From a virus, in the IMG/VR virus record IMGVR_UViG_3300045988_067813, positions 1 through 64,000 of that record: 64,000 nt of DNA. One strand, given 5' to 3'. The position numbers and the translations under genes were made by a program. A model generated the notes under the pieces. The model saw only the letters and a program-made list of their open reading frames with translations, searched no databases and was not told the origin of the DNA. Position 1 is the stretch's first letter; each line of letters opens with the position of its first letter. Of this stretch, positions 3,710-25,718 are shown piece after piece.

Positions 3710-3949
3710 ATGTATCCAACAATTAAAGATAAAAAAAGGGATTTAAAAAATGCCTGGTTAACTGCTAAAAATAAGCTTGTGACTGTAGAAGTATTAGATA
3801 CATTCTTAATTGAAATTTTTGTCTTATATAGTTATGACCACAAAGAAGAACCTCCTTTCTTGCTTGGTAAGGATTTACAAAAGTCACTGAATTTACCCTT
3901 TGATGTTAAGTATAGACAGCTTGAAAGGGTTTTAGGTGGTCTAAAATGA
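3710..3949 (+). CDS. Hypothetical small protein (79 aa)
   Basis: ATG 3710 (MYPTIKDKK) after SD TAGGAGAGG. ATGA overlap with the next gene. Confidence 0.65.
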   Translation: MYPTIKDKKRDLKNAWLTAKNKLVTVEVLDTFLIEIFVLYSYDHKEEPPFLLGKDLQKSLNLPFDVKYRQLERVLGGLK

Positions 3950-4140
3950 AGTTAGAAATTGGTCAAACAGTTAAATTAAATAGAAGTATGGGTCAATGTG
4001 AAAAGGGTGAAGTATTCAAAGTTGTTAGAATAAGTGGGTTTTTAGCTGTTCTTAAAAGTATAGTAACAAATGATGAATATTTTGTATATATAAATTTTAG
4101 TGGGGTTGATTTAATAGAAAAGGAGATTTTCCATGTTTAA
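3946..4140 (+). CDS. Array-1 paralog, short single-domain form (ends EIFHV)
   Basis: IGQTVKL...EKGEVFKVV resembles the second half of the longer paralogs. Its stop overlaps the next start in cATGTTTAA. Confidence 0.7.
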   Translation: MKLEIGQTVKLNRSMGQCEKGEVFKVVRISGFLAVLKSIVTNDEYFVYINFSGVDLIEKEIFHV

Positions 4141-4348
4141 TATAGGTGATATTATTGAGCTAACCCAAGATACATTCATGTATGAAAAGGGCATAATTTG
4201 TCAAATTGTGGAAGTGGATGAAGATAATTCTAATTATGGGTTTGTTAAAATTTTAAAATATCCTGATGGTAGAGAAGGTGACGGTAAGGAAAGGCACGCA
4301 AACCTAACTCTATTTAAGTTAGTAGCTAAGGAATGTTTCTATGTTTAA
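4133..4348 (+). CDS. Array-1 paralog, short form (ends ECFYV)
   Basis: MFNIGDIIEL...EKGIICQIV. ATGTTTAA overlap junctions at both ends. Confidence 0.75.
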   Translation: MFNIGDIIELTQDTFMYEKGIICQIVEVDEDNSNYGFVKILKYPDGREGDGKERHANLTLFKLVAKECFYV

Positions 4349-4676
4349 AGTTGGTGATATAGTGTGGTCTAATACTAATAGATATAGCATGACATGCTAC
4401 CATAGACCCTGTAAGGTTGTAAGGGTAGATAGTTTTAGTAGAATGATTGTAGAAGTCATTGATACAGGAAAGTATTATCCAGTTGAAACTAAAGAATTTG
4501 AGCATATCACAGAAGATGGAATATTTTACATTGGGGATATTTTAGAATATAAAGGTATGATACTCATTTTCCAGAGTTACCAAGATTATTCCACAGTATT
4601 GTGTAATACTCTTGATGAATCCCCCATTAGAGTAGAGATTAAGGATATAAGGAAAGTAGGTGGTTTCTTTGTTTAA
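4341..4676 (+). CDS. Array-1 paralog, two-domain form (ends GGFFV)
   Basis: MFKVGDIVWSNTNRYSMTCYHRPCKVV plus a second GDILEYKG half. Confidence 0.8.
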   Translation: MFKVGDIVWSNTNRYSMTCYHRPCKVVRVDSFSRMIVEVIDTGKYYPVETKEFEHITEDGIFYIGDILEYKGMILIFQSYQDYSTVLCNTLDESPIRVEIKDIRKVGGFFV

Positions 4677-5010
4677 AGTTGGTGATATAGTGTGGTCTAA
4701 ATCCCATAGGTATTCAGTTACTTTCTATCATAGACCTTGTAGGGTTTTAAAAATTTTAGGGTCAGAAATGAGGGTGCAAGTATTAGATAATGGTTACTCT
4801 TTTGTAGTTGATGTACTTAAATTTGAGCTTGTGCCAGAGGGTGGAATACTTGAGCCAGGAGATAAGCTTATCCATAGTAAGACTAAAGAAATGCTTATTT
4901 TTACAAAGTACCATGATTGTGAGTATATAAAGTGTAGAAATTCAGATAATGAAGTTAAGCAGTATAAAATTCAAGATGTAGAAAAGTATAAGGAAATATT
5001 TTATGTTTAA
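4669..5010 (+). CDS. Array-1 paralog, two-domain form (ends EIFYV); TTG start inferred
   Basis: The junction is TTGTTTAA instead of ATGTTTAA. The product (M)FKVGDIVWSKSHRYSVTFYHRPCRVL aligns from residue 1 with its neighbours. The track's GTG 4660 is an in-frame alternative. Confidence 0.7.
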   Translation: MFKVGDIVWSKSHRYSVTFYHRPCRVLKILGSEMRVQVLDNGYSFVVDVLKFELVPEGGILEPGDKLIHSKTKEMLIFTKYHDCEYIKCRNSDNEVKQYKIQDVEKYKEIFYV

Positions 5011-5341
5011 AAAAGGAGATATTGTAAGAGCTACTACACGAAGATATGTTTATACAAGTTATATGCGACCATGTTTAGTCAAGGAATATGATTCATCAGG
5101 AAAATTACTGATAGAGCCTTTTGATGATGGTTCTACTTATGATGTAGATGATACAGCTTTTGAAATTGTACCTACTAGAGAAATATTCAAACAAGGTCAA
5201 GAAATACTTGTAAAAGGCTTTAAAGATAGGGTTGTGTTTAAAAAATATCTTAGTAGAGGTGAAATTAGGATAACAGAGGATGAATGGTTTCACGATATTA
5301 GTATAGATGATGTTATTTATCTAAGGGGGTTTTATGTTTAA
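5003..5341 (+). CDS. Array-1 paralog, two-domain form (ends RGFYV)
   Basis: MFKKGDIVRATTRRYVYTSYMRPCLVK. ATGTTTAA junctions. Confidence 0.8.
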   Translation: MFKKGDIVRATTRRYVYTSYMRPCLVKEYDSSGKLLIEPFDDGSTYDVDDTAFEIVPTREIFKQGQEILVKGFKDRVVFKKYLSRGEIRITEDEWFHDISIDDVIYLRGFYV

Positions 5342-5681
5342 AGAAGGGGACATTGTATGGTGCACAAGTGATGATGATTACAGAATAACTTGTTATCACA
5401 GACCTTGCAGAGTTGTGGGTTATGATAGTCAGGGCTATTTATTACTAAAAGCCTTTAACCAATCTAATTCAATAAAACATGATGTAAACGAAAAGTTGTT
5501 TGAATTAGTACCAGTACACAAAATATTGAAGCCTGGTCAACTGATTAAAATTAAGGGATTGGATAGATTAGTAGAGTTCAAAAAGTATAAAGATAGAGGT
5601 TATGTTGAAGTGGTTGATAATGGCTGGTTTTCAGAATACTATGTAGACGATATTATATTTGAAGAAGGGTTTTATATCTAA
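5334..5681 (+). CDS. Array-1 paralog, two-domain form (ends EGFYI)
   Basis: MFKEGDIVWCTSDDDYRITCYHRPCRVV. ATGTTTAA at the 5' junction and TAATG at the 3' junction. Confidence 0.8.
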   Translation: MFKEGDIVWCTSDDDYRITCYHRPCRVVGYDSQGYLLLKAFNQSNSIKHDVNEKLFELVPVHKILKPGQLIKIKGLDRLVEFKKYKDRGYVEVVDNGWFSEYYVDDIIFEEGFYI

Positions 5682-6025
5682 TGTTAGCGAACTTAACAGG
5701 TCACGATATTTATATTGTGGATAGACATGGAAATATAGTAACTACAATACAGCCTTGTGAAACAGAAGAGCCTCTGAGAGCTGAGGTTACTATGCGAAGA
5801 CAGAAAAAAATTGAAGGAATAAAATTAACTAAACTCTTTTATACTAGCAATATCACAGAGCGAAAAATGCAAGAATTACTTAACAAGTATGATGGTATTA
5901 TTGTATCTAAGATAACAGCAGAGTGCTTGAAAGAGTTAGGCTACACGGATAAGATTTATATTACTGGAAGAAAGTTTTATAGACATGGTGAGCTTATCGG
6001 TGTGAAAGAATTATGTATTTTATAA
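5681..6025 (+). CDS. Hypothetical protein (114 aa)
   Basis: ORF coupled by a TAATG overlap to the array. No motif recognised. Confidence 0.65.
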   Translation: MLANLTGHDIYIVDRHGNIVTTIQPCETEEPLRAEVTMRRQKKIEGIKLTKLFYTSNITERKMQELLNKYDGIIVSKITAECLKELGYTDKIYITGRKFYRHGELIGVKELCIL

Positions 6026-6043
6026 GGTAAAGGAAAGAAGAAA

Positions 6044-7585
6044 ATGAAAATGCAATCAGTAACAAGAGAAAATATGGAAACATTCAAGGAATCAATGCTA
6101 TCAAAAAAGGAATTTGAGGAGCTTGTAGGAGAGGTAAAAACAAACAAAGAGCTTGCTGAAAGACTTGCACAGATTGAAGCACCAGCAGATATTGAAGGGT
6201 ATGGAGCTGACTTTGTGGAAGCTGTTAAGACCTTAAATAGTCAAACAGACTTTCTTGAGGTTATCAGAGCATGGGATTTGGTGGATAAGCTACGAAAGTA
6301 TCAAAGCCTATTCCCTAGTGGCTATACATTTAAGGATATGTACCTAACTAGCCCTCTCCCTACTGTACTTGTGGGAGTTGATAAAGAGCGTACACTCTTA
6401 AAATATCCTGAAAAGTGGTATGAAGACCACAAAGAAGAGCTTTCTAAAGTATTAGACTTGCTTATTTATCGTAAGAAAAATGGAGGTGATTCTTACACAG
6501 AGCGAAACAGTAACATTGAAGACTTAGATAGATTTATTTCAGATAATAACCTAGGTAGTTATCCTAAAGTGTTTTCTTATATGCTTATGAGAAGCACAGA
6601 TGGAAGATATGCTAATGATGGGGATAAAGTTAAGGTATTACCAAAATTCCAAAAATATATCTCTAAGAAATTTGACAAAAAAATTAAAGAGCTTAATGGG
6701 GATTTAGTAAAAATTTCTTATTCAAGTATGGTAAAAGACTATTTTGGGCTTAATTTAGATGAATCAAAAAATGCTCCTAAGTTGTCTAAACAGCTTAAAA
6801 AAGCAGGAATTAGCTACACTGATGAAGAAATCCGCCATTTTGGGGAAGTAAGAAACTGGTGGGATGATTGGAATGTTTTTAACAAGTCAACAATTAAAAA
6901 TAAGGTTTTTCGTGCAAGAGATTTATGGGTAGATAAAGCAGATTTTACTATTCCAGTTATTGTTGACGATTGGGCTTTCAATGACTCTTGTAATAAGTCT
7001 GATAGCGGTGCTGGTGCTGATACCCATCTTGTGTTACGAAGTTTTGGGTTTGAATATCTCAAAGGGTATTCTGTAGGGTACACAAGAGATAATGGATATT
7101 CCCTATACCCTGCTATGAGAACTTATTTCTTAAGGAAAGACAGCGATATTGCTCATGCTGGAACTTATGCCGATTTTAGTAGCACCAGAGCAAAAGCTTG
7201 TTATGAATTTACTACTGTCCTCTTGTGTATCTTCTTTAACAAAAAAGTAGATGATTTTTACAAGATTAAAGGTATGAATATTGATTGTCAATATTACAAT
7301 GACAAAAAAGGAGGAAGTATTTACTTTTGGGCTAACCAAGCAAAAAATGACTATGCTAAATTTGGTACAGCAGAGCTTTTTGAAGAATATGATGCGCTTG
7401 TAATGGAAGATTACATAAATAATAATGAAAGTCTACGAAATACATTAAATAATTATTTAAAATCTAATGAATATAGATTATTACAAGAAAAGTACATGAA
7501 TTTTATTGGTTTACAGCTATCAGATAAAGCACCAGAAGTTAGAGAGCTATCACCTCTTACAAAAGAATTGTTGGAATTGATTTAA
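6044..7585 (+). CDS. Hypothetical large early protein (513 aa)
   Basis: Long ORF with SD AAAGGAAAG. I could not assign a family. Confidence 0.8.
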   Translation: MKMQSVTRENMETFKESMLSKKEFEELVGEVKTNKELAERLAQIEAPADIEGYGADFVEAVKTLNSQTDFLEVIRAWDLVDKLRKYQSLFPSGYTFKDMYLTSPLPTVLVGVDKERTLLKYPEKWYEDHKEELSKVLDLLIYRKKNGGDSYTERNSNIEDLDRFISDNNLGSYPKVFSYMLMRSTDGRYANDGDKVKVLPKFQKYISKKFDKKIKELNGDLVKISYSSMVKDYFGLNLDESKNAPKLSKQLKKAGISYTDEEIRHFGEVRNWWDDWNVFNKSTIKNKVFRARDLWVDKADFTIPVIVDDWAFNDSCNKSDSGAGADTHLVLRSFGFEYLKGYSVGYTRDNGYSLYPAMRTYFLRKDSDIAHAGTYADFSSTRAKACYEFTTVLLCIFFNKKVDDFYKIKGMNIDCQYYNDKKGGSIYFWANQAKNDYAKFGTAELFEEYDALVMEDYINNNESLRNTLNNYLKSNEYRLLQEKYMNFIGLQLSDKAPEVRELSPLTKELLELI

Positions 7586-7598
7586 AAGGAGAAATAAC

Positions 7599-8723
7599 AT
7601 GAAATACACATTTATTGACGTACTAACTAAAACACAATCAGAAATGCAAGAATGGCTTCCAGAAGTATTGGCTGACTATGGTTATCAAATTAAGGTAACA
7701 GACTACATGATTCAAGCAATTAGTACAGAAGAGAATCAGCCTTGTCTTGTGGCTCATTTAGACACAATCAACACAAAACGCAAGAACTCTGGTTATAGTT
7801 ATGGTACTTACTACCAAAATACCACAGTCACAAGCACAGAAAAAGACCGTACACCAGAAGAGGAAGATATTCTAGTCACAGAGCGCTATATCTTATTGTC
7901 TCCTGAGTGCAAGTCTAGTATTCAATGTTTGGGTGCTGATGACCGTGTAGGAGTTAAGACTATCCTAGATATTCTTGAGACAGGTCTCAGACCTCATATT
8001 CTCTTCACTACAGACGAAGAAGTGGGTTGTGTGGGTTCTAGGAAGGCAGTAGAAGAAAATGCGTTAGAGGGGCTAAAAATGGCTTCTATGCTTATTCAAA
8101 TTGACCGAGGGGTTCATGAACGTTCTTGGCATGAAATGGTAACTTATGACTTTGACCCAGAATCACACAAGGAAATCTTTGATGAGTTACGAAAGACCTA
8201 CACAATGGCTACAGGTTCATACACAGACGTAGCAGTGCTTGGACCTCATTTAGATAAACCTATTGTGAATGTATCAGCTAGTTATATGCACGAACATACC
8301 ACAGACGAATTTATCAATCTAGATGCCTATAAGTATAACACACAAGGTCTAATCAAGTTCATTGAATGGGCACAGAAGCAAGACACAAGCGAATGGAAGT
8401 ATGTAGCTAAATATGTACCACCAAAACCAAAAATCACACGCACTACAGACTTTACTAACTTTCCTCCTAAATTTGGAGAGCAAAGACCTAGCCTATGGGA
8501 AAGAGATAAAGGGTATGCTAAAGCAGAAGACTACTTTAAAGAAATGTGTAAATCTCAATTTATGCACCCTATCACAATCTTTGACCGTTATATAGCAGAA
8601 GGTTATGAAGAAGAAGACTTACTAGATTGCTTAGACTTAGCATATAGTCTAGGAGCTGAGTTCACAAACGTGTGGCAATTAAATTATATTCTTGAAGGTA
8701 AGATTTACCAACACGTTGTATAA
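7599..8723 (+). CDS. Putative clan-MH Zn metallopeptidase/amidohydrolase (M20/M28/M42-like) with extra C-terminal region
   Basis: Ordered ligand-like motifs: VAHLDT (H-x-D), GADDRVG (bridging D), TTDEEVGCVGS (E-E), YTDVAV, YMHEHT (terminal H). Confidence 0.5.
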   Translation: MKYTFIDVLTKTQSEMQEWLPEVLADYGYQIKVTDYMIQAISTEENQPCLVAHLDTINTKRKNSGYSYGTYYQNTTVTSTEKDRTPEEEDILVTERYILLSPECKSSIQCLGADDRVGVKTILDILETGLRPHILFTTDEEVGCVGSRKAVEENALEGLKMASMLIQIDRGVHERSWHEMVTYDFDPESHKEIFDELRKTYTMATGSYTDVAVLGPHLDKPIVNVSASYMHEHTTDEFINLDAYKYNTQGLIKFIEWAQKQDTSEWKYVAKYVPPKPKITRTTDFTNFPPKFGEQRPSLWERDKGYAKAEDYFKEMCKSQFMHPITIFDRYIAEGYEEEDLLDCLDLAYSLGAEFTNVWQLNYILEGKIYQHVV

Positions 8724-8730
8724 AAGAAAA

Positions 8731-8756
8731 AAGGACAGCTCATTTGCTGTCCTTTT
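8731..8756 (+). terminator. Rho-independent terminator after the early block
   Basis: 9-bp stem AAGGACAGC/GCTGTCCTT with loop TCATTT. An A-run lies upstream and T's downstream. Confidence 0.65.
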
Positions 8757-8827
8757 AAGGTTACTTTATGTACTTATAAGTATATCACACACAGCAGAAT
8801 CTTGCAAGTAAAAGACTCTATATACTA

Positions 8828-8905
8828 TGTATCTTTTTGGTGGAAGTATAAGTTTTCTTTATATTATATATACTCTTGTATATGTGATAAATAAATACAT
8901 AATCT
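8828..8905 (+). repeat. Repeat element copy A: promoter TTGGTG(8837)-17-TATATT(8860) plus TGTATATGTGATAAATAAATACATA box
   Basis: Aligns with copy B (8941-9026) and, inverted, with 1-60. Confidence 0.6.
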
Positions 8906-8940
8906 ATCTTATTCTACACAGATATTATATGATATGTAAA

Positions 8941-9026
8941 CATTTGATGGAAGTATAAGTTTTCTTTATTATATACTATATACTAGGAATTAGTATTTGT
9001 ATATGTGATAAAAGAATACATACCCT
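8941..9026 (+). repeat. Repeat element copy B: promoter TTGATG(8944)-17-TATTAT(8967) plus TGTATATGTGATAAAAGAATACATA box
   Basis: Direct repeat of copy A about 107 bp downstream. GGAAGTATAAGTTTTCTTTAT is shared. Confidence 0.6.
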
Positions 9027-9057
9027 ATATCTAAAATACCAAACCCTAGACCAAGCA

Positions 9058-9090
9058 AAATGTTCGTAGTCAAGCTACAAACATTTTTTG
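9058..9090 (+). terminator. Strong rho-independent terminator
   Basis: 12-position stem AAATGTTCGTAG/CTACAAACATTT with 11 pairs and one mismatch, a 5-nt loop, then TTTTTT. Confidence 0.7.
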
Positions 9091-9120
9091 GGGACGATAT
9101 AAATTTCTTGAAGTTGGTTA

Positions 9121-9149
9121 TTGCTTTCTGTGTGTGATTGTGCTATACT
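9121..9149 (+). promoter_or_regulatory. Promoter TTGCTT-17-TGcTATACT for the replication module
   Basis: -35 at 9121-9126, extended -10 at 9141-9149. The CTGTGTGTGAT spacer motif is shared with the promoter at 104-132. Confidence 0.55.
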
Positions 9150-9182
9150 AGATTTATCAATTAACGAATGAGAGGTTACTTT

Positions 9183-10067
9183 ATGTATTTCAAAGTACAT
9201 GTAAATATGTTCCAGCACAAGGATTTAAAAAATCTATCTGACATATTCTTGTATAGCTTTCTGTGTGGATTTGCCAAGGAAGACCAAAAAGAGGTTTATT
9301 CTCACTACACTAACCAGCAACTTGTGGATATTTTTGGCTGTTCATCACAAACCATCTCTAACTCAATTACTCGTCTTGTGAAATTAGGATTGGTTAAACG
9401 CTATGAAGATACTCGTTTCAGTGAATCTCACTGTGATTTTTTCTGTAGACGGACTATTGTAGCTGATACTACACTATACCGTAGCTATGCTGGAGAACAT
9501 TATCTTTCTGTGAATACTAATTGGTTATCGGATTGGAAATTGCCATTCAGAGCTGTTCAGTTACTAGCATTGTTTTGGTCTAGTTATTTTATGAATAACT
9601 CTAGGATTGTTGAATTTACTACTGAGCAAGTAATGGATATTATGGGAAATGTAAATTACAGAACATATATCAACAACTACAACCTTTTAGAAGAATTAGG
9701 ATTGATTAAGGTTAACTCAGAGAAGCATGAGCAGTATAAATGTATTGAGCTTTGTGTGGAATACCTTGGAGAAGAGGTAAATCCAGAAGAAGTTCTAGGC
9801 TCTGCTGTGGAAACTGAAAGCATTAAGTCTTCTGTGGGAAAGCTAAAATCTGTGATTTCATATTTCACAAAATACCTAAGACAAAAAAGCAGTAAGGTAG
9901 TTAAGAATCTGCTACACAAGTTAGACCCTTCAATCACTGTGAAGAGAACATTAGAGCCTTTGTGGCAAGCCTTTGACTATTATGATAGACTATCAATCAG
10001 GTCAAGAATCCCAGAAGATGCAGACCCTAGAGATGGTTATTTTGTACAAGGAGAAGGATATGCCTAA
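9183..10067 (+). CDS. Putative replication initiator/replisome-organizer-like protein with two winged-helix-like segments
   Basis: ATG 9183 follows SD GAGAGG. The N-terminus MYFKVHVNMFQHKDLKNL resembles the phage replisome organizer N-domain. Two HTH-like stretches are present: QQLVDIFGCSSQTISNSITRLVKLGLVKR and TEQVMDIMGNVNYRTYINNYNLLEELGLIKV. Confidence 0.45.
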   Translation: MYFKVHVNMFQHKDLKNLSDIFLYSFLCGFAKEDQKEVYSHYTNQQLVDIFGCSSQTISNSITRLVKLGLVKRYEDTRFSESHCDFFCRRTIVADTTLYRSYAGEHYLSVNTNWLSDWKLPFRAVQLLALFWSSYFMNNSRIVEFTTEQVMDIMGNVNYRTYINNYNLLEELGLIKVNSEKHEQYKCIELCVEYLGEEVNPEEVLGSAVETESIKSSVGKLKSVISYFTKYLRQKSSKVVKNLLHKLDPSITVKRTLEPLWQAFDYYDRLSIRSRIPEDADPRDGYFVQGEGYA

Positions 10068-12289: not shown

Positions 12290-12290
12290 T

Positions 12291-15497: not shown

Positions 15498-15531
15498 AAG
15501 GGAAAATTTTTAAATTTTCTCTAATTTCCTC

Positions 15532-15560: not shown

Positions 15561-15584
15561 AGTATATGTAGAAAGGAGCAAGAC

Positions 15585-16647: not shown

Positions 16648-16780
16648 GTTAGATAAGAAACTTACCACAGTCAAGAATGATTTGAATGTAGAGAGAACAC
16701 AGCGTACTGGAGCAGATTACTCAATAGGTATGAGGTTTGATACTCTCATTCATTACTTGCAAGAAGGGAAACAACCATGA
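16622..16780 (+). CDS. Small coiled-coil protein (start uncertain)
   Basis: ORF overlapping the end of the XRE gene. ATGA overlap with the next gene at 16777. Confidence 0.3.
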   Translation: MLMLNRVNELDKKLTTVKNDLNVERTQRTGADYSIGMRFDTLIHYLQEGKQP

Positions 16781-17211
16781 AAATAACAATGAGGATACCA
16801 AGAGAAATTGGTGAGTGGATTGAATACTGTAAGTCTTGTAGCATTACACTTTATGGTGCATTAGACCCAGTAGATAAGTTTGGTATGTCTATTGCTGAAA
16901 CTTTTAAGGGTGATGCACATAAGTGTGCTAAATGGGCTAGAACAAACTCTAATGATTTTGCTTATGCTTGGGTAAATGGTTATGAAGTAGATGAGAAATA
17001 CTACTATATAGTTATACCTTGTGGTGAGGGTACATATAGAAGAGTGTTTATGAATAGCAATAGAAACTTAGTAATAAGTGGGTTTACATATCATTCTGAG
17101 GAAGAAGCTAGAAAAATAGCAAAAGATAGTAGTTTTAAACTTACAAAGAAGATGATTAAAGATTCTCCTTTATCATGGGCTTGGCAGTTTGCTAAAGAAT
17201 TGGAGTTGTAA
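16777..17211 (+). CDS. Hypothetical protein (144 aa), DUF1642-like C-terminal flavour
   Basis: ORF coupled by an ATGA overlap. The C-terminus KLTKKMIKDSPLSWAWQFAKELE resembles tails of streptococcal-phage DUF1642 proteins (recollection only). Confidence 0.55.
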   Translation: MKITMRIPREIGEWIEYCKSCSITLYGALDPVDKFGMSIAETFKGDAHKCAKWARTNSNDFAYAWVNGYEVDEKYYYIVIPCGEGTYRRVFMNSNRNLVISGFTYHSEEEARKIAKDSSFKLTKKMIKDSPLSWAWQFAKELEL

Positions 17212-17213
17212 TT

Positions 17214-17492
17214 ATGAAATATTTGAAAGTTAGTGATAAGTTAAAGACTACAGTAGATAGGCTTATAGCAGGTGGGCATAATGCTAAATATATTTACCTA
17301 GTTAGTATTAAGTTCATAACAGATAAGGAAATGGAGTTCTATATCCCATCATTTGAACTAGCAAGGTTTGAAAGTTATCTAAGTGAATCAAAAATTTTTA
17401 GGTTGGCTTATATAGATTCTGGGGATGTTATGATAAATCCTAATACTATTATTGCTGTTTTGTTAGGACAGAAGGAGTTTACTAATGGATAA
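17214..17492 (+). CDS. Hypothetical protein (92 aa)
   Basis: ORF 3 nt after the previous stop. Confidence 0.6.
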   Translation: MKYLKVSDKLKTTVDRLIAGGHNAKYIYLVSIKFITDKEMEFYIPSFELARFESYLSESKIFRLAYIDSGDVMINPNTIIAVLLGQKEFTNG

Positions 17493-17940: not shown

Positions 17941-17948
17941 GAGGAACT

Positions 17949-18758: not shown

Positions 18759-18783
18759 CAAGGTAACACGTTTTTGATAAACT
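18755..18783 (+). promoter_or_regulatory. Promoter TTGACA-17-TGaTAAACT; -35 overlaps the stop codon of the nuclease gene
   Basis: ACCTCTTGACA box. The spacer carries GGTAACACGTTTTTGA, also seen at 1148 and 1228. Confidence 0.6.
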
Positions 18784-18848
18784 AGTCTTGTGGTGGTAGA
18801 GCTAATCACTTTAAACCCTCTACAAATATTATTAAGGAGGTTAGCACA

Positions 18849-19133
18849 ATGGCTAACAAAAAAGAACTATTTGTCTCACTCGCTCAAGAACTTGGAATTG
18901 AATTACCAACTGACTTTCTTGAACCACGTTACATTATCTTCGTAGGTAAGAAACCACGTCGTGTTAAAGCACCATACATTGCTATCAATGCTAATGGAGA
19001 GCTTTCTGGATTCACAGAAGAAGCTGACGTACTTGGTCATGGTACTGACAAGATTGGTAAATTCACTCTTGCTGAAATCGAAGAACGTTTCCCTCAATTC
19101 AATCATGAAGCGTTCCTAGTTAAAGTAGATTAA
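18849..19133 (+). CDS. Hypothetical, probably highly expressed small protein (94 aa)
   Basis: It has its own promoter, a perfect SD TAAGGAGGT and its own terminator. Confidence 0.75.
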   Translation: MANKKELFVSLAQELGIELPTDFLEPRYIIFVGKKPRRVKAPYIAINANGELSGFTEEADVLGHGTDKIGKFTLAEIEERFPQFNHEAFLVKVD

Positions 19134-19140
19134 AGGAGAT

Positions 19141-19170
19141 AGGCTACATAGTTTATCTGTGTAGCCTTAA
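19141..19170 (+). terminator. Hairpin terminator
   Basis: AGGCTACA(TAG)...(CTG)TGTAGCCT gives an 8-11 bp stem, followed by a T-rich tract. Confidence 0.5.
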
Positions 19171-19177
19171 CTTTTAT

Positions 19178-19336
19178 ATGGAATGTAAGATTTTTGAAGA
19201 TAAAAGTAGGCATGACCTTGAAAAAATGATAAATGAATTTATCAAATACAAGGTAGATGTAAGTATATCAATAACTTCTACTAAGTGGGGATACTCTACA
19301 TACTATACAGCTATTGTTTGCTATAAAGTGAGGTAA
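19178..19336 (+). CDS. Small protein, Cse60-like pattern (52 aa; not in track)
   Basis: My translation is MECKIFEDKSRHDLEKMINEFIKYKVDVSISITSTKWGYSTYYTAIVCYKVR. There is no clear SD. Confidence 0.35.
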   Translation: MECKIFEDKSRHDLEKMINEFIKYKVDVSISITSTKWGYSTYYTAIVCYKVR

Positions 19337-19339
19337 GAT

Positions 19340-19519
19340 ATGGCTAAAGATACTTTTACTAAAACGTTTAAAACAGCTAATCAAGAACAGTTTGATGCAA
19401 ACTTAAACAAGTTCCTTAGTAGTGAAGATAAAATTGTCACAAGCGTTAAGTTTGGTGATGGTCGTGTAACTTTTAATGGAATTATTGTAGAAAAAGAAGA
19501 AGAGAAAAAAGATGCTTAA
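19340..19519 (+). CDS. Small protein (59 aa; not in track)
   Basis: MAKDTFTKTFKTANQEQFDANLNKFLSSEDKIVTSVKFGDGRVTFNGIIVEKEEEKKDA. SD GTGAGGT. ATGCTTAA overlap with the DHFR start. Confidence 0.5.
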   Translation: MAKDTFTKTFKTANQEQFDANLNKFLSSEDKIVTSVKFGDGRVTFNGIIVEKEEEKKDA

Positions 19520-19997
19520 GTTTATTTGGGCACAAGATAAGAATGGACTTATTGGTAATAAAGGGAGATTACCTTGGTCTAACAGCGCTGACCTTAACTA
19601 CTTTAAAAACCAAACAACAGGTGGAGTAGTGGTTATGGGTCTAGCTACATGGGTATCAATCGGAAGTAAACCTCTTAAGGGTAGAATCAATGTGGTATTG
19701 ACACACAAAGATGAGATTGATGGCTATGATGATGAGAATGTTTACATTGCTAACTCTGTGGAGGAGGTCTTACAGTTTGAAAAAGAAACTGACCGAGATG
19801 TTTGGGTCATTGGAGGAGCAAGAACATTCAAAGCCTTTGAAGATTACTGTGAGGAAGTAGTAGTAAGTACCATTGATGGAGATTACAGTGGTGATACCTA
19901 CTACACAGGCTTAAAAGATAAGCTCACAGAAGATAAAGTAGTAGTAACAACGAAAGGTGAAGGCTTCACTGTGAAGCACTATAGGTTAGTAGAATGA
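19512..19997 (+). CDS. folA: Dihydrofolate reductase
   Basis: LIGNKGRLPW, VVMGLATWVSIG, RINVVLT, VWVIGGARTF. Confidence 0.85.
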   Translation: MLKFIWAQDKNGLIGNKGRLPWSNSADLNYFKNQTTGGVVVMGLATWVSIGSKPLKGRINVVLTHKDEIDGYDDENVYIANSVEEVLQFEKETDRDVWVIGGARTFKAFEDYCEEVVVSTIDGDYSGDTYYTGLKDKLTEDKVVVTTKGEGFTVKHYRLVE

Positions 19998-20296
19998 TTG
20001 AAGCACTTTTAGCAGTGATTACTGTACTGATTATAGCTCTGTGTGTATCCATTTACTTTCTAATAGTCCTACAAGGCTCTAAAACGTCTCTAGAAGACGA
20101 TAAAGAGCATCTTGGACATATTATAAGCAACTACAGAAAAAGTGAAGAGAGACAAATTGAGAGCCTTCTAGGAGGTATTGATGGTGTCACTTCTGTAAGC
20201 CTATCTCCAATCCGTTACTTGGAGTTGATGAAAGCTGAGGAAGACTTGGCTGAATACAGACTAAAGATTAGGAAGATTGGAGATTATCATGAGTGA
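19994..20296 (+). CDS. Membrane-anchored protein (N-terminal TM)
   Basis: LLAVITVLIIALCVSIYFLIVL. ATGA overlap with DHFR. Confidence 0.6.
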   Translation: MIEALLAVITVLIIALCVSIYFLIVLQGSKTSLEDDKEHLGHIISNYRKSEERQIESLLGGIDGVTSVSLSPIRYLELMKAEEDLAEYRLKIRKIGDYHE

Positions 20297-20381
20297 TGAC
20301 TTATATAAGTTACTAGAACAAGCTCTAATTGTTATCTTTGCTCTCTCCGTGTTTTATATTGACAGACGAGGTAAGAAGTAA
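20289..20381 (+). CDS. Tiny hydrophobic ORF (30 aa; not in track)
   Basis: MSDDLYKLLEQALIVIFALSVFYIDRRGKK. Overlap-coupled at both ends (ATGAGTGA, TAATG). Confidence 0.3.
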   Translation: MSDDLYKLLEQALIVIFALSVFYIDRRGKK

Positions 20382-20767
20382 TGGGCGAAGATATTAGAAA
20401 TCCAGAGCGCTATACACACACAAAATTAGAGTGTTGGGATTTTTGGTTAGATGCTATGCTCAATCCACTAATCTGCTCTGCTGTTAAGTATGTGTGGAGG
20501 TATAAGTACAAGAATGGTTTAGCTGACCTTGAGAAAACAATAGAATTTCTTGAGAAGGCTGAAAACTCAATGTTAGAAGTGTACTATACTGAAAAAGAGT
20601 ATTACCTAGATGATGAAGATGTCAAAGATGGACTTGATGCTACTCAAATTCTTTTTATGAAAGGTGCTACCCTTACTACTAGAAGCTCTACATACCTAAC
20701 AGGTATTGACATTATGAAATATGCCTTAGTAAAACTTATAGAGGAATACAAAACAACAAATGACTAA
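20381..20767 (+). CDS. DUF3310-like phage protein
   Basis: LECWDFW...AVKYVWRYKYKNGLADLEKTIEFLEK matches my recollection of the DUF3310 signature (..KY..R...K.g..DL.KA..YL). Confidence 0.5.
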   Translation: MGEDIRNPERYTHTKLECWDFWLDAMLNPLICSAVKYVWRYKYKNGLADLEKTIEFLEKAENSMLEVYYTEKEYYLDDEDVKDGLDATQILFMKGATLTTRSSTYLTGIDIMKYALVKLIEEYKTTND

Positions 20768-21278
20768 AATTGAATTAGCCCTTGTGATTATTGTAGCTGT
20801 GTACTTTGGATTGAATTTCTTTGTACACCTATATGAATTGCTACATAATTTCAAAGTAATTAAACTAAAGGTACGAGATGATGGTGTGAACCCTGTCAAT
20901 CGTATTGTAGTTGGAGATTGGATTGACCTAGAATCCAACACAAAACTAAGCTATAAAGCTGGTGACACAGTAGTAATTGACTTTGGTGTAGCTATGGAGC
21001 TTCCTAAAGGTTATGAAGCACACATACTACCACGCTCAAGCACTTTCCAAAACACTGGTCTATTACTCACAAACAGTATGGGTGTCATTGATAACTCTTT
21101 CTGTGGAGATAATGACTTTTGGGGTGCTAAGTTCTATGCTACTAGAGAAGGTAGCATTGAGAAAGGTCAACGCTTGTGTCAGTTCAGAATTATGAAGAAC
21201 CAACCTGAGTTACATTTCAAGGAAGTATTGAGCCTTGGTAATGCTGACCGTGGTGGGTATGGTTCAACTGGAAAGTAG
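20760..21278 (+). CDS. dut: Trimeric dUTPase with an N-terminal hydrophobic extension
   Basis: GDWIDLES, LPRSS, GVIDNSFCGDND, QRLCQFRIM, DRGGYGSTGK. It is preceded by LALVIIVAVYFGLNFFVHL. Confidence 0.85.
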   Translation: MTKIELALVIIVAVYFGLNFFVHLYELLHNFKVIKLKVRDDGVNPVNRIVVGDWIDLESNTKLSYKAGDTVVIDFGVAMELPKGYEAHILPRSSTFQNTGLLLTNSMGVIDNSFCGDNDFWGAKFYATREGSIEKGQRLCQFRIMKNQPELHFKEVLSLGNADRGGYGSTGK

Positions 21279-21284
21279 GATAGA

Positions 21285-22028
21285 ATGAAGCTAAAGAAAC
21301 TTAATAAAATTAAGCTACACACAATGACTGTGTTCTATGGAGCACCTGGGTCTGGTAAGTCTAGCTTTATCAACTCATTACCAGGTAATGTATTGATTAT
21401 TGACACAGACCGTGGACTTGCTTCTGTGGAACAAGATGACCGTTTCTCTGTAGCTGAGTGTACTAGCTGGAATGATGTGATTGAAGCTCTAAGCTTTGCT
21501 AAAGACTTTGATAGTATCGCTGTAGACCACTTATCTAATGTTCAAGAGCTTTGCTACAAAGATATTATGGAAACTAATAACGTCAAGAAAATGCTTATTA
21601 ACCATTATGGTGAAGCATCTACTCGCTTGAAAGCATTTATTGATGAGCTTGTGGACTTATCTTATCAAGGTAAGAATGTGTATGTTATTGCACAAGAAAA
21701 GAACTTGAACATTGAAGATGTAGTAGATGAGAATGTACCAGCACAGACTGTACCTAACCTTATGGATAGTGTGGCTAAGTACATTACAGCATCATCTCGT
21801 ATCATTGGTCATACAGAGCGTGTGACTAAATCTAAGATTGTTAAGGGTGAGAAAAAGGTTAAGGACTTCTACCAAGTACGTCTTGCAGGAAATCCTATCT
21901 ATACCCTTAAGGTAACTCGTAAGCCTGGTCTTACAATCCCTGACACAATGGTTAACCCTACATGGGAAGCTGTTGTGGGATTGACTGATGGTAGCACACA
22001 AGCAAAAACGAAAGAGGTTAAAGAATAA
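21285..22028 (+). CDS. AAA_24 / Sak4-like RecA-fold ATPase (recombination)
   Basis: VFYGAPGSGKSSFINSLPGNVLIIDTDRG (P-loop then the D-x-D-x-G typical of AAA_24). Confidence 0.65.
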   Translation: MKLKKLNKIKLHTMTVFYGAPGSGKSSFINSLPGNVLIIDTDRGLASVEQDDRFSVAECTSWNDVIEALSFAKDFDSIAVDHLSNVQELCYKDIMETNNVKKMLINHYGEASTRLKAFIDELVDLSYQGKNVYVIAQEKNLNIEDVVDENVPAQTVPNLMDSVAKYITASSRIIGHTERVTKSKIVKGEKKVKDFYQVRLAGNPIYTLKVTRKPGLTIPDTMVNPTWEAVVGLTDGSTQAKTKEVKE

Positions 22029-22447
22029 TGTCAATTATTACTGTACAAGCAACTAAAAGAGAAGATTTTGCCTATGAACCTGGAAGATATGAAGCGGTTA
22101 TCCAAGGTGTAGAGCAGACTGTATCACGCTCACAGATTGATATGGTTAAAGTAACACTTAAAGGTGACTTTGGTAAAAACGCTCCTCACACAATCACTTC
22201 ATTCATGTTGGATAACAAGATTGGACGTGAACAACTTTATAGCTTACTCTCAGCATTAGGTATGCAAGATGAAGAAGCTGTAGATACTGATGACCTTCAA
22301 GGTAAATATGTAGGTATTGTAATTAAAGAGGGTCAACCTTATAATGACAAACCTTCATGGAACGTTGTAGACTTCTTTGCTCTTGATGAAGATGATTCTG
22401 ATGATGACGTAGATGTAGACACAGACGATTGGTCTGATGCAGAGTAA
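22028..22447 (+). CDS. SSB-like / DUF669-like protein with acidic C-terminal tail
   Basis: Positioned after Sak4-like. C-terminus DEDDSDDDVDVDTDDWSDAE. Confidence 0.45.
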   Translation: MSIITVQATKREDFAYEPGRYEAVIQGVEQTVSRSQIDMVKVTLKGDFGKNAPHTITSFMLDNKIGREQLYSLLSALGMQDEEAVDTDDLQGKYVGIVIKEGQPYNDKPSWNVVDFFALDEDDSDDDVDVDTDDWSDAE

Positions 22448-22631
22448 TTAAATAGTAGGGTGAGTGACTAACAAACTAAACTATAACAGAAGAAAGATTT
22501 AATTTCTAATTAACACCTAGTCACTCCTCTCATAGAGCTGGTAGGAAACACTCCTTAATTTGTTAAATTTTCATGCTGATTTTACCTGTAATACGTTTTC
22601 CTTAAGCCATTAGCAGATTACCTGCCAGTTC

Positions 22632-22660
22632 CATGAGGGGAAGCCCTCGTCATGATTTTT
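22632..22660 (+). terminator. Terminator-like hairpin within the long leader
   Basis: GAGGG-GAAG-CCCTC, with an outer CAT/ATG pairing, followed by ATTTTT. Confidence 0.4.
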
Positions 22661-22883
22661 ACTCTTAATATAATTCTAGCGTGGAAGGATTTTCCTTCCT
22701 AAATGCACACAATTATTTATGGTATCCTCTGTCTCCTGTTTTTTAAAAATGATTGTCATAAATAATAAATTATCAAAAGATTGAATAGCACTCTCAGGGT
22801 AAGTTTCAAATTCATAGTCAAATTCCAATACAGAACGCTTTCGCTTTATAGTAATTAAATTGTGTGCATCTAGGAGGGTAAAT

Positions 22884-23786
22884 ATGTCAATAACATTAGA
22901 TGGTCTTAAAGAGTATGTACTCCTAAGACGTGATGCCTTTGAATACAAGTATGATTTGAATGGTATGAAAAGAAACCCCTTGTACCGTAAGCACTATCCA
23001 AACAACCTTAAATACTTAGATAAAACTTCACAGATTCTAATTAGGACAATGAACAATCACCCTGTACCTATTAGAGAGAAATTACTTACTGTGCTAGTGT
23101 ATCGTTTTGTTGGTGATAAGGACTTTGTGAGAAGACATACGAATAAGCAAGGTATGATAACACTCAAAGAGCTTAATATCTTGGCTAAGAAGCTAGACAA
23201 TGAAAAGACTAGACTAGTACACAGATATGCAACACCACTGAGCAAAAGAGGAATCACAGGGCTTAGTAGAGGAGAGTTCTTACTCGCTGTGGCTTGTGAC
23301 TTCTTGGATAAACTTCCACCAGATAACTTCTACAAGTGGAAGACCTCAGAGATTGCTAGACAGTTCATTGAGTTTGAGAATGTATATGGAATCAGTTATA
23401 CTATGGCTTATCAGTTAGCTTCTGATATAAGTTATATAAATGAGCTGTGTGTTAAGATTGATTTTATAAAGGCTATACCTGAGAGAGCTAGAGAAATGTT
23501 CTCTTACATTACAGGTCAACCTTATAGACTAGAACGCTATGAACAATTCACCTATGAGTTTATGGATTGGTATGCAAACCAAGATTTTCTAGAGAATAAA
23601 GAAAGACTTGTGCTACCTCATGATGTTACACAAATGTTGTTAGGATATAGGCTCTATACTTTTGGAGGAGCACTAATAACTAGACACAGAATAGAACGTA
23701 AGCCTAGAAGAATTACAGGTGGTATTGTTATTTCAAGGAGTATGTATGAGTATTATAAAGAAAGTGTGGATTCTAAAAAGGATTGA
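22884..23786 (+). CDS. Hypothetical protein; weak resemblance to alpha-glutamyl/putrescinyl thymine pyrophosphorylase (aGPT-Pplase) family
   Basis: ATG 22884 after SD TAGGAGGG. The segments NPLYRKHYPNNLKYLDKTSQ, LVYRFVG and GISYTMAYQLASDISY resemble my recollection of aGPT-Pplase motifs. Unverified. Confidence 0.3.
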   Translation: MSITLDGLKEYVLLRRDAFEYKYDLNGMKRNPLYRKHYPNNLKYLDKTSQILIRTMNNHPVPIREKLLTVLVYRFVGDKDFVRRHTNKQGMITLKELNILAKKLDNEKTRLVHRYATPLSKRGITGLSRGEFLLAVACDFLDKLPPDNFYKWKTSEIARQFIEFENVYGISYTMAYQLASDISYINELCVKIDFIKAIPERAREMFSYITGQPYRLERYEQFTYEFMDWYANQDFLENKERLVLPHDVTQMLLGYRLYTFGGALITRHRIERKPRRITGGIVISRSMYEYYKESVDSKKD

Positions 23787-23973
23787 TGAGCTAGGTAATT
23801 GCTACCACACCTTAGAAATTAGTAATTATGTCACACGGAACAAATTCATTAGAGAATGGATTGGAGATGAGACTGTGTACACAAGAACTAAAGAGGGTGA
23901 CGTAGATATTATCCTTAAACGTAACGGAGAGGAGCTGTGGTACTATGAAGACTACCCAGAATCTTACCGCTGA
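23746..23973 (+). CDS. Hypothetical small protein (75 aa)
   Basis: ATG 23746 follows SD CAAGGAG. Confidence 0.5.
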   Translation: MSIIKKVWILKRIDELGNCYHTLEISNYVTRNKFIREWIGDETVYTRTKEGDVDIILKRNGEELWYYEDYPESYR

Positions 23974-24217
23974 TAAAGCATCAGATAAGTATATAGAACT
24001 TGAGAAGCTTTATAAAGAGATTGGTAAGGAGATAAAAGAAACTCTTGACCACAGAAAGCTTAAGAAGCTCAGACGTAAACGTAAGCTCATTAGAGCTGAA
24101 CAGAATATGCTTTACCCTTATATGGTCAACACAGGTTATGTAGCTTACACAGAGCATGTATTAGGTTTAAAGGGTAATCAAGCCCTATATGGCAGATATA
24201 TAAGAGGTAAGAAATGA
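23945..24217 (+). CDS. Hypothetical basic small protein (90 aa)
   Basis: ORF with a lysine/arginine-rich middle (HRKLKKLRRKRKLIR). Confidence 0.55.
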   Translation: MKTTQNLTADKASDKYIELEKLYKEIGKEIKETLDHRKLKKLRRKRKLIRAEQNMLYPYMVNTGYVAYTEHVLGLKGNQALYGRYIRGKK

Positions 24218-24501
24218 TAGACATTGAAATTCTAAGAAGAAAGGCTAAGAGAGGTATCTCATTCCCTAAGCAGACTCCACAGTGGGTTGAATTGTTTGGT
24301 GTGAGATGCCTAGCCATTGGATTTTATAGAGGTGATGAGAGACGTATTCTATTTCTAGCTAATAAACCTACAAGTGGATTCCATAATGGACATAAGATAT
24401 TTAAGTTTATTCTATCGCTAGAAGCTAGATGCTATGAGCTACCATTCACAGGACAAGTAGACTTAGGTATAGAGAAGTTCTCTAGGGGGTTTTATATATA
24501 G
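24214..24501 (+). CDS. Array-2 paralog (ends RGFYI)
   Basis: VRCLAIGFYRGDERRILFLANKPTSGFHNGH aligns with the following four ORFs. Confidence 0.7.
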   Translation: MIDIEILRRKAKRGISFPKQTPQWVELFGVRCLAIGFYRGDERRILFLANKPTSGFHNGHKIFKFILSLEARCYELPFTGQVDLGIEKFSRGFYI

Positions 24502-24510
24502 GAGTATATA

Positions 24511-24822
24511 ATGGAAACATTAGATGAACTAATAAGAAAAATAGAAGATAATTTAGAAGAAGATTGGGTAAAGTTAAAAGAAATTCCAAAGAGGTGTATA
24601 TTAAAGAAAGCCTATGAATTAGTAAATGTGCCTGGTTATTTTGTTACAATATATTATCCAGATAGTGGGGGTGAAGAGTTTTTGTTTATATCGGATGTAA
24701 AGAATAAACAAGAGTTTCATGATGCTCCTTCTTTATTTAAAACAAAATGCTTTAAGCATAGGTGTAGATGGGTATGGGGAAATGACGTAGAAATTGAAGA
24801 GTGTAAGGGTTTTTACATTTAG
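24511..24822 (+). CDS. Array-2 paralog (ends KGFYI)
   Basis: PKRCILKKAYELVNVPGYFVTIYYPDSGGEEFLFISD. SD TAGGAG. Confidence 0.75.
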   Translation: METLDELIRKIEDNLEEDWVKLKEIPKRCILKKAYELVNVPGYFVTIYYPDSGGEEFLFISDVKNKQEFHDAPSLFKTKCFKHRCRWVWGNDVEIEECKGFYI

Positions 24823-24836
24823 GAGAATATGATACA

Positions 24837-25133
24837 ATGGATGAATTGTTTAAAACTATAAAAAGTAACTTAGCTTATTATTATAAGGTAAAACATAAAC
24901 CTAAAAGGTGTTGTCTTAATGATTATCTTGGTTTAATAAAAGAACCTGGATATGTTGTTAAACTAATTCATGATGATGGCTGTGTAGATTTATTATTTAT
25001 AGCTGATGAGAGACAAAAGAAACAAATTTATGGCTATGGTTTTATCATTGAACGGAGTGAAGCATTAGCTAGACGTTGTTTGTTATTAGAAGATAAGGCT
25101 GTTAAAATCATAGAGAAAGGACTATGGATATGA
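24837..25133 (+). CDS. Array-2 paralog (ends KGLWI)
   Basis: PKRCCLNDYLGLIKEPGYVVKLIHDDGCVDLLFIADE. SD TAGGAG. Confidence 0.75.
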   Translation: MDELFKTIKSNLAYYYKVKHKPKRCCLNDYLGLIKEPGYVVKLIHDDGCVDLLFIADERQKKQIYGYGFIIERSEALARRCLLLEDKAVKIIEKGLWI

Positions 25134-25414
25134 CGAATATAGAAAAAGTAATAAAAGCTATTAAAGAGAAAGGGTTTACTATTATACAATATCCTTGTGA
25201 TGCTTCTATACAAAAGGAAGATGAGGAACAAGTATTCTTTGGTAAAACTCCTTTTGGAGAAAATGTATATGAATTGTTTATAAATAATGAGCCTGATGGA
25301 CGTAATTTCCATAATGGTTGCTCAGTGTTAGGTAGTCACAATAGAATACCAGATATAATATGGTTTAAAGAAGTACATGATAAAATAACTATACTTGGAC
25401 AGTTTTATATTTGA
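25124..25414 (+). CDS. Array-2 paralog (ends GQFYI)
   Basis: Similar length and C-terminus. ELFINNEPDGRNFHNG resembles ANKPTSGFHNGH. Confidence 0.65.
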   Translation: MDMTNIEKVIKAIKEKGFTIIQYPCDASIQKEDEEQVFFGKTPFGENVYELFINNEPDGRNFHNGCSVLGSHNRIPDIIWFKEVHDKITILGQFYI

Positions 25415-25424
25415 GGGTATAAAG

Positions 25425-25718
25425 ATGGAAAAACATCAAGAGGAATATTTAGAATTATTAAAAGATAAGTATGTAATAAATAATATCTACCAAAGAGTTA
25501 CTTATAAAAGAGTTAAAGGTATAGTTGATATTGGGATTGCAGTAGAAGTAAAAAATTTAGATACTGGGACAGTATTTGCAGTATTCATAGCAGACAAGCC
25601 AAGAAAGTATTTACATAAGTTTGCATCACGATTAGAGAGTGGACATCTACCACCTTGTGTGTGGCTTGCTAAATTATCTGATAAAGAATTTGAGATACAT
25701 AAAGGATTCTTCATATAA
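25425..25718 (+). CDS. Array-2 paralog (ends KGFFI)
   Basis: ATG 25425 follows SD GAGGG. GTVFAVFIADKPRKYLHKF aligns with LLFIADERQKKQ. Confidence 0.7.
   Translation: MEKHQEEYLELLKDKYVINNIYQRVTYKRVKGIVDIGIAVEVKNLDTGTVFAVFIADKPRKYLHKFASRLESGHLPPCVWLAKLSDKEFEIHKGFFI

Follow-up and report, generated by a model that had tools for sequence, protein, structure and literature searches.

Introduction

Class II PDZ ligands (hydrophobic-x-hydrophobic-COOH) bind by strand addition, whereby alternate side chains of the peptide enter the receptor, and PDZ-binding motifs are carried by such unrelated viral proteins as human papillomavirus E6, adenovirus E4-ORF1, human T-lymphotropic virus 1 (HTLV-1) Tax and influenza NS1. 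Here we describe a comparable ending in a stretch of 64,000 nucleotides (positions 1 to 64,000 of the IMG/VR record IMGVR_UViG_3300045988_067813; henceforth the window), which covers most of the ~64 kb genome of an uncultured phage. Eleven small proteins, encoded by two tandem gene arrays of unrelated families (family 1 in array 1, family 2 in array 2), end in a common tail, (G)-hydrophobic-x-[Ile/Val]-COOH, in which we count residues backwards from the C-terminus (-1). Our preferred reading, to which we give just short of an even chance, is that these last three to four residues are an exposed docking motif, by which two unrelated families of small, diversifying proteins would engage a single receptor.

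The tails resemble class II PDZ ligands in being a free C-terminal motif of three to four residues with an aliphatic end, in which the hydrophobic residue at -3 corresponds to P-2 of the PDZ numbering and is followed by a variable residue. As in the animal viruses, the motif is found on unrelated viral proteins. However, PDZ systems have a known receptor domain, whereas the receptor of the phage tails is a hypothetical one. Moreover, most of the known PDZ domains of Firmicutes lie outside the cytoplasm, whereas the array proteins have, by inspection, no signal peptides.

The C-terminal tip of the single-stranded DNA-binding protein (SSB) and the beta-clamp motifs likewise use a short peptide to bring many proteins to one site. 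In SSB, however, the tail is on the hub and not on its clients, and the strong conservation of both hubs fits poorly with the lineage-specific flavors of the phage tails (see below). As identifications of the tail, both motifs were rejected: no Gln-Leu, as in the beta-clamp motif (QL[SD]LF or QLxLxL), precedes the tails, which read [KERG]-G-F-Y-I and similar, and they have neither the acidic run nor the Pro-Phe ending of the SSB-type tip (D-D-D-I-P-F). Degradation tags share with the phage tail an exposed non-polar free end that can be attached to any body, but the pattern [FLM]-x-[IV] with Gly at -4 and a beta-branched end suggests a more specific site. A constant short peptide on diversified multi-copy proteins also recurs in the capsid-targeting sequence of the T4 internal proteins and in the C-terminal signals of type IV secretion effectors. 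The T4 tag, however, is N-terminal and cleaved, whereas the phage arrays lie on the replication strand and not among virion genes; furthermore, both of these designs serve packaging or export machinery, none of which is linked to the arrays. Our literature searches returned no description of unrelated small phage protein families with such a shared tail. Docking by way of C-terminal peptides is in itself nothing new, but families 1 and 2 are themselves unannotated and family 2 is without a structural relative.

Two gene arrays encode proteins with a common C-terminal tail

The eleven open reading frames (ORFs) lie at the positions, and carry the endings, that were originally described for them (Table 1). 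All eleven end in [FL]-[YFWH]-[VI], with Ile or Val as the last residue in each. As had been claimed, no other protein of the window ends in this way (0 of the 75 other called genes), the ending RYV of a 1596-residue protein aside. To control for base composition, all 820 open stretches of 30 or more codons in the six frames of the window were considered, and only two of the 809 outside the arrays match the pattern; the amino-acid composition of the window gives expected frequencies of 1.9e-3 for this loose pattern and 3e-5 for GF[YF][VI]. Since the genes within each array are paralogs, the independent count is two families and not eleven proteins. Among the other proteins of the window, 3 of 2775 pairs have their last four residues in common in a reduced alphabet, and 16 their last three, which places the chance of coincidence at ~0.1-0.6% for one pair of arrays.

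The homologs make up 257 clusters for family 1 and 149 for family 2, all of them from metagenomic contigs of ~58-65 kb belonging to the same phage group. The tail is kept in 118 of the top 120 homologs of family 1 and in about 113 of the top 120 of family 2, the exceptions being truncated, frameshifted or read-through copies and one intact copy with an extra C-terminal residue. Ranked by conservation among windows of four residues, the tail is third of 100 in family 2 and eleventh of 112 in family 1. HMMER searches of 1.84 billion representative proteins gave just 44 matches, for family 2, and the intact members among these all end in G/x-[FLMIV]-x-[IV]; a single family 2 protein used as a query in IMG/VR found no match. 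Across the lineages, position -3 is F, L, M, V or I, whereas the residue at -2 varies with the lineage among Y, F, W, H, K, T, L, M and V, and the Ile or Val at -1 is kept in essentially all intact homologs. The signature GF[YF][IV] of the original prediction thus describes one lineage only, its family-wide form being the weaker (G)-[FLMV]-x-[IV].

At the nucleotide level, the pattern AAAGGNTTTTATATHTAR has at least 120 matches in IMG/VR, and 10 of those listed end an ORF of at least 50 amino acids: eight represent a single ImmA-like metalloprotease of Lacticaseibacillus prophages, one is a member of family 2 and one is a doubtful ORF of 57 amino acids. Among the matches listed, the tail does not appear to be a common ORF ending. 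The metalloprotease, an ImmA/IrrE-like protein of 142 amino acids with an HEIMH motif (L052, L063, L078 and others), ends in AIKGFYI and is the only other real family with the tail ending among these matches; it is also encoded by the Lactobacillus phages iLp84 and PLE3. Its ending is probably a coincidence.

Junction signals and selection at the protein level

The compact layout of the arrays raises the alternative that the tail is a mere by-product of the signals at the gene junctions, where translational coupling relies on overlapping start and stop codons, next to a ribosome-binding site and a T-rich spacer. In array 1 the junctions follow the scheme AAGGAR-NNN-TTY-TATG-TTTAA, in which the next gene has its ribosome-binding site in the purine run and its ATG in TATG, and GTT-TAA is fixed because the next protein starts with Met-Phe-Lys. 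These overlapping signals constrain the Tyr, the Val and part of the preceding Gly/Glu, in agreement with the earlier observation that the Y-V of array 1 is partly forced by the ATG. Thus, the last 8 nucleotides of gene 1 (ATGTTTAA) are the start of gene 2, and the gene 2 junction AAGGAATGTTTCTATGTTTAA holds both the ribosome-binding site and the ATG of gene 3. At the junction of genes 3 and 4 (4660-4676), a start codon and the tail of the upstream protein plainly constrain each other: the -2 codon of gene 3 is TTT because gene 4 starts with TTG and not ATG, giving FFV in the window, and in related phages with a TTG start the overlapping codon is ATT, giving FIV. The TTG is the most likely start of gene 4, as is the ATG for the last gene of array 2 (see Table 1 for the alternatives in the ORF listing).

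Array 2 had been described as free of overlaps, which does not hold: its genes 3 and 4 overlap by 10 nucleotides, and the KGLWI codons CTATGGATATGA cover the ATG GAT ATG start of gene 4. In related phages, ATGA overlaps are common in array 2, with GGAGG-like ribosome-binding sites falling on codons -5 and -4.

Against the junctions as the sole cause, several array 2 genes have the ribosome-binding site after their stop codon (TAGGAG, TAAGGGG, TGAGGGG) and still end in G-F-Y-[IV]; in gene 1 of the window the stop is followed by TAGGAG, with the ATG 6 nucleotides on. Every tail codon of array 2 varies synonymously (GGG/GGA/GGT, TTT/TTC, TAT/TAC, ATA/ATT/GTA/GTG). The last gene of each array also keeps the tail: KGFFI of array 2 precedes no gene but only a terminator-like hairpin, so that it is not shaped by a downstream gene, and EGFYI of array 1 has a single nucleotide in common with the unrelated gene downstream (TAATG). 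Likewise, the non-overlapped array 1 genes of another lineage (lineage C, below) still end in F-[KT]-[VI]. Furthermore, the overlap fixes only part of a codon, so that I/V is chosen over L/K/E, and with the ATG in place -2 could be any of Y, H, N and D, whereas 113 of 120 family 1 homologs have Y (86 in FYV, under the ATG overlap, and 27 in FYI), one has H and none has N or D.

The synonymous variation, the tails of the last genes and the preference for Tyr together show, as the original prediction had it, selection at the protein level, which acts mainly on -3 and -1, with an aromatic residue preferred at -2 in the lineage of the window. The earlier claim that the preceding G/F is unforced stands for the Phe but not for the Gly, which coincides with the ribosome-binding site. 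An origin of the tail in the junction signals is refuted as a complete explanation by the non-overlapped and last-in-array genes; we regard it as very improbable in that form, although these signals are a partial contributor.

Two further readings at the DNA level were rejected. A promoter function of the tail DNA (-10-like TATATA) is contradicted by the synonymous variants TTC TAC ATA and CTA TGG ATA, and a promoter scan of the array 2 region (23600-25900) found no excess of sites. The transfer of a junction cassette between the arrays is contradicted by the lack of nucleotide similarity past the tail codons.

Concordant change of the tail in three phage lineages

The related phages were grouped into lineages by a protein of 300 amino acids encoded upstream of array 2, which is 66-74% identical between groups. 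In lineage A (the window and its close relatives), array 1 ends in F-[Y, rarely F/I/H]-[VI] and array 2 in [F, some L/M]-[Y/F/W]-[IV]. The endings of lineage C (e.g. contig 059250) are GLHV, KFT[VI] and GFK[VI] in array 1 and GLFI, SFTV/GFKV, CFKV, GFKI, CLVV and GFYI in array 2. Lineage D has GLYV(Y), GLYI, GMLI, GLFV and GLFI (L217) or GLYI, GLLI, GLIV and GLYI (L176) in array 1, and GLLI, GMLI/GMLV, GLLI, GMYI, GFYI/GFFI and SFFI in array 2 (L178, L166, L177); its array 1 locus (L217) is tied to an array 2 locus (L178) by 96% amino-acid and 92.6% nucleotide identity in the overlapping region. Array 2 of lineage B ends in KGV[MV]V, KGLVV and GLKV, and its array 1 lies outside the recovered contigs; the three informative lineages are A, C and D.

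With one representative genome per lineage, Phe at -3 is found in 10 of 11 proteins of lineage A (6/6 in array 1, 4/5 in array 2) as against 2 of 11 in lineage D (0/5 and 2/6; pooled p = 0.002). Lys or Thr at -2 is found in 5 of 9 proteins of lineage C as against none of 22 elsewhere (p = 0.0007), and this holds for each array taken separately (array 1: 2/3 versus 0/11, p = 0.033; array 2: 3/6 versus 0/11, p = 0.029). The Leu and Met residues are encoded by several codons (CTA, TTA, TTG, ATG), which makes a mutational bias or a copied DNA cassette unlikely. Positional orthologs also differ by lineage, the first gene of array 2 ending in RGFYI, RGLFI or IGLLI, and hence many genes of two unrelated families have changed in the same way within a lineage. 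Each of the three lineages has its own tail flavor, common to families 1 and 2. Such a concordant change of flavor is predicted by a shared, co-evolving reader of the tail, and suggests a common receptor that co-evolves with it.

Predicted structures of the two families and placement of the tail

The bodies of the two families had been reported not to align, and profile comparison bears this out: hhalign gives a probability of 0.5% with the window paralogs and 1.6% with profiles of ~120 sequences, in both cases aligning only 5-7 tail columns. Neither Pfam nor PHROGs returned a significant family for the array proteins, and sequence profiles of the PDB gave nothing significant for either family.

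AlphaFold2 models were built from alignments of ~120 sequences for gene 6 of array 1 and gene 2 of array 2. The family 1 model has two all-beta domains, with a mean predicted local distance difference test (pLDDT) score of 82.8, and Foldseek relates it to the tandem Agenet, SGF29, 53BP1 and KIN17 SH3-like domains (probability 0.96-1.0, E ~5e-3 (at least 4.8e-3), template modeling (TM) score 0.33-0.45). On these values the family 1 model resembles the tandem Tudor/Agenet/SH3-like proteins, with their two small beta-barrels in tandem, though with no sequence similarity to them. The short genes 1 and 2 of array 1 look like one copy of the domain, judged by their N-terminal MFNIGD-type strand; the family 1 profile matches gene 2 weakly (E 0.0025) and gene 1 not at all. 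The family 2 model (pLDDT 90.4) begins with a helix and continues as a sheet. Foldseek found nothing significant for it in the PDB and BFVD, the best hit being CAP-Gly (E = 0.29, TM 0.46), and the resemblance to CAP-Gly and chromo-barrel domains is weak. A CAP-Gly identity was rejected on account of that E-value, the lack of a GKNDG-like motif in the sequences and the lack of a Pfam match. A single common family for both arrays was likewise rejected, as there is no profile similarity past the tail and the layouts of secondary structure differ; a very remote kinship of the two as SH3-like barrels is still conceivable.

In both models the tail is left unplaced, in agreement with the free C-terminus of the original prediction. 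The last three residues of family 2 have a pLDDT of 48 as against ~95 for the body, with no secondary structure after residue 95, and the last five of family 1 have 59 as against 86-92. This is suggestive only, on the strength of the models, of a tail that is free of both predicted folds; a conserved hydrophobic peptide with no place on its own protein is what would be expected of a binding motif. That the tail is not an obligatory part of the family 1 fold follows from an 81-residue relative of the family 1 domain (MKFKVGDII...; E = 3e-6 to the family profile) in a distant phage, which ends in SDLFE.

These structures also bear on the alternative that the terminal strand serves the assembly of each family separately, by strand exchange in a homo-oligomer or by packing against its own body, and that the resemblance between the families is a coincidence. 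A hydrophobic-x-hydrophobic stretch after Gly does look like an edge strand past a tight turn, both folds are beta-rich and, if both are SH3-like barrels, they could have topologically similar endings; a monomer model cannot show strand exchange. The weakness of the family-wide motif and the frequencies of shared endings among other protein pairs given above are also in its favor. Nevertheless, separate assemblies would not lead one to expect that both families change together, from F to L/M at -3 in lineage D and to K/T at -2 in lineage C, AlphaFold2 leaves the tail off the body despite the ~120-sequence alignments and the high confidence for the body, and the tail-less family 1 relative exists. 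On this evidence we consider separate assembly functions unlikely.

Diversification and turnover of the arrays

The arrays turn over quickly. Across related phages, array 1 has 3-6 genes and array 2 has 3-7 (2-3 in lineage B), with the number differing even between close relatives, and paralogs within an array are only 20-45% identical. Pseudogenes are frequent, in the form of frameshifted, truncated, fused or read-through copies (in array 2: L012, L016, L033, L036, L178, L166; also P0149, P0179, P0188, P0214). Changes in copy number, pseudogenes and low identity between paralogs are typical of diversifying pressure, and are compatible with a role in host takeover or counter-defence.

Genomic context of the arrays

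The + strand of the window from 1 to 25718 encodes small uncharacterized proteins together with a replication and nucleotide-metabolism block (primase-helicase, family A DNA polymerase, PD-(D/E)XK nuclease, DHFR, dUTPase, AAA_24, DUF1642, DUF3310), whereas the - strand from 25745 to the end of the window holds large late-type genes and two tRNA genes. Array 1 is preceded by a block of small genes, upstream of which both sigma-70-like promoter sites are located (Table 1). From this layout, early expression of both arrays is inferred as the probable arrangement.

Table 1. Array genes and other features discussed in the text (positions refer to the window unless a contig is named)
Feature	Position	Strand	Remarks
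Array 1 gene 1	3946..4140	+	64 aa, putative single SH3-like domain, tail EIFHV
Array 1 gene 2	4133..4348	+	71 aa, single domain (MFNIGD...), tail ECFYV
Array 1 gene 3	4341..4676	+	111 aa, two domains, tail GGFFV
Array 1 gene 4	4669..5010	+	113 aa from TTG 4669 (MFKVGD...), tail EIFYV; ORF listing gives GTG 4660
Array 1 gene 5	5003..5341	+	112 aa, tail RGFYV
Array 1 gene 6	5334..5681	+	115 aa, tail EGFYI
Array 2 gene 1	24214..24501	+	95 aa, tail RGFYI
Array 2 gene 2	24511..24822	+	103 aa, tail KGFYI
Array 2 gene 3	24837..25133	+	98 aa, tail KGLWI
Array 2 gene 4	25124..25414	+	96 aa, tail GQFYI
Array 2 gene 5	25425..25718	+	97 aa from ATG 25425, tail KGFFI; ORF listing gives TTG 25395
Conserved 114-aa protein	5681..6025	+	MLANLTGHDIYIV...GVKELCIL; directly 3' of array 1 in every case, translationally coupled
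Tail-less family 1 relative	L167:5382-5627; L169:1753-1998		Logan contigs SRR19906185_186848 and SRR19906100_149933
Two-way terminator-like hairpin	25722..25744	.	directly 3' of array 2; closes the + strand operon, divides the + and - blocks
Sigma-70-like promoter site	1660..1688	+	near-consensus, 11/12 matches, extended -10 TG
Sigma-70-like promoter site	1775..1803	+	near-consensus, 11/12 matches, extended -10 TG
tRNA-Arg(tct) gene	63109..63182	-	
tRNA-Cys(gca) gene	63282..63353	-	
DUF1642 protein	16777..17211	+	
Late protein, 374 aa	27960..29084	-	ends in ENDLTGGI
Late protein, 186 aa	30718..31278	-	ends in ENDLTGGI
Dp-1-type holin family match	L166:17030-17233	-	lineage D relative

The 114-residue protein encoded next to array 1 matches no family. 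Its conservation, at identities between 96% and 38%, extends to distant phages without tail-bearing genes, and it is a possible candidate for the partner of the tails.

The phage itself is remote from described ones: neither array has a DNA match by blastn among 50,697 phage records, and the nearest known phage DNA polymerases, those of Clostridium phage CP3 and Lactococcus phage KSY1, are only 35% identical. A search of 185,579 species genomes found none that encodes family 1, and hence neither a prophage copy nor a clue to the host. Hints on the host, and only that, come from the DUF1642 protein, a family which we take to be typical of Streptococcus and Lactococcus phages, from the Dp-1-type holin match in a lineage D relative, and from the human-associated origin of some source samples (IMG 7000000xxx identifiers). 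The original prediction had named a mitis-group Streptococcus as the putative host. On the - strand, two late proteins have an identical terminal octapeptide, which suggests a duplicated or common C-terminal module in the putative tail-fiber region.

Mechanistic interpretation

In the docking reading proposed here, the tail would enter a pocket of a single shared receptor in the form of a short extended strand, free carboxylate included, and there the side chains at -1 and -3 would be the buried determinants and -2 would make a secondary contact; the variable bodies would thereby be brought to the receptor. A strict Ile/Val at -1 and a hydrophobic residue at -3, with a variable one between them, are the signature of a peptide added as a beta-strand and held by its carboxylate. 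The receptor, the binding mode and the purpose of the recruitment are parts of this model that we infer. As phages with 60-75% identity in their conserved proteins differ in flavor, a phage-encoded or a variable host receptor is likelier than a conserved hub such as the clamp or SSB.

Several points weigh against this reading. In array 1 and at the overlapped junctions of array 2, any conservation of the Gly and of the preceding K/E/R is confounded with the ribosome-binding site of the following gene. The motif that holds for the families in depth, hydrophobic-x-[IV], is weak, such that ~4% of random proteins would fit it, and the coincidence between the arrays would be unremarkable had any pair of proteins in the proteome been allowed. 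The covariation rests on three lineages, in which the paralogs are only partly independent of one another. In a few apparently intact copies the tail is followed by one extra residue (P0082, KIFYVY; L217:144-341, RGLYVY), and another copy, L180:2771-3118, has the deviant ending KRVDL, which argues against an absolute need for a terminal Ile/Val carboxylate. Chain ends, moreover, often have a low pLDDT in AlphaFold2 models. Finally, Pfam detected no PDZ or other peptide-binding domain among 50 window proteins, the remaining late proteins and the host lying outside that scan. The common docking site of the original prediction is thus partly supported: the concordant flavors of the lineages speak for it, whereas a receptor domain did not emerge among the scanned proteins.

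A shared receptor is also implied if the tail is a C-terminal degradation signal, the outcome then being destruction and not recruitment: a host or phage protease or unfoldase would remove the proteins after they have acted, and thereby time their activity. The tail is hydrophobic, exposed and conserved, sits at the extreme C-terminus of many otherwise unrelated proteins of the + strand replication block, and its lineage flavors could track different hosts. Non-polar C-terminal residues reportedly destabilize proteins in bacteria (Parsell, Silber and Sauer 1990), ssrA-type tags are an existing device of this kind, and several early proteins of lambda are protease substrates. However, the tail is unlike the Ala-Ala-COOH ending of ssrA and the ClpX C-motif-1, an ssrA-like degron being rejected since none of ~240 homologs ends in Ala-Ala. 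The strict Ile/Val at -1 and the Gly at -4 suggest a specific pocket rather than to general non-polarity, and a change of flavor among close phages is harder to explain with host proteases, which are conserved. A degradation signal seems to us improbable.

Returning to docking by a shared receptor, its extended form would be a phage tail-tag system, in which one receptor, probably phage-encoded and co-evolving with the tails, gathers up to a dozen diversifying proteins of unrelated folds, and the arrays are libraries of interchangeable payloads for host takeover or counter-defence. This more specific proposal is possible, but we hold it with some doubt.

Conclusions

To our knowledge, most small early phage proteins have neither a known function nor a handle for their study. 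If the docking interpretation is true, an address of four residues would serve as a bait for the receptor as well as a rule to recognize further members from their endings, and could possibly be used as a tag to send arbitrary proteins to the same site. It makes the testable prediction of a single receptor with lineage-matched specificity, for which the lineage flavors are natural specificity-swap controls, while the copies with extra residues or deviant tails are natural test cases for the requirement for a free Ile/Val carboxylate. Should the tail be a degradation signal instead, it would represent a compact timing device for early phage proteins in Gram-positive hosts. If the tail-tag system is real, it would be the counterpart, in viruses of bacteria, of the C-terminal PDZ-binding motifs of animal viruses.

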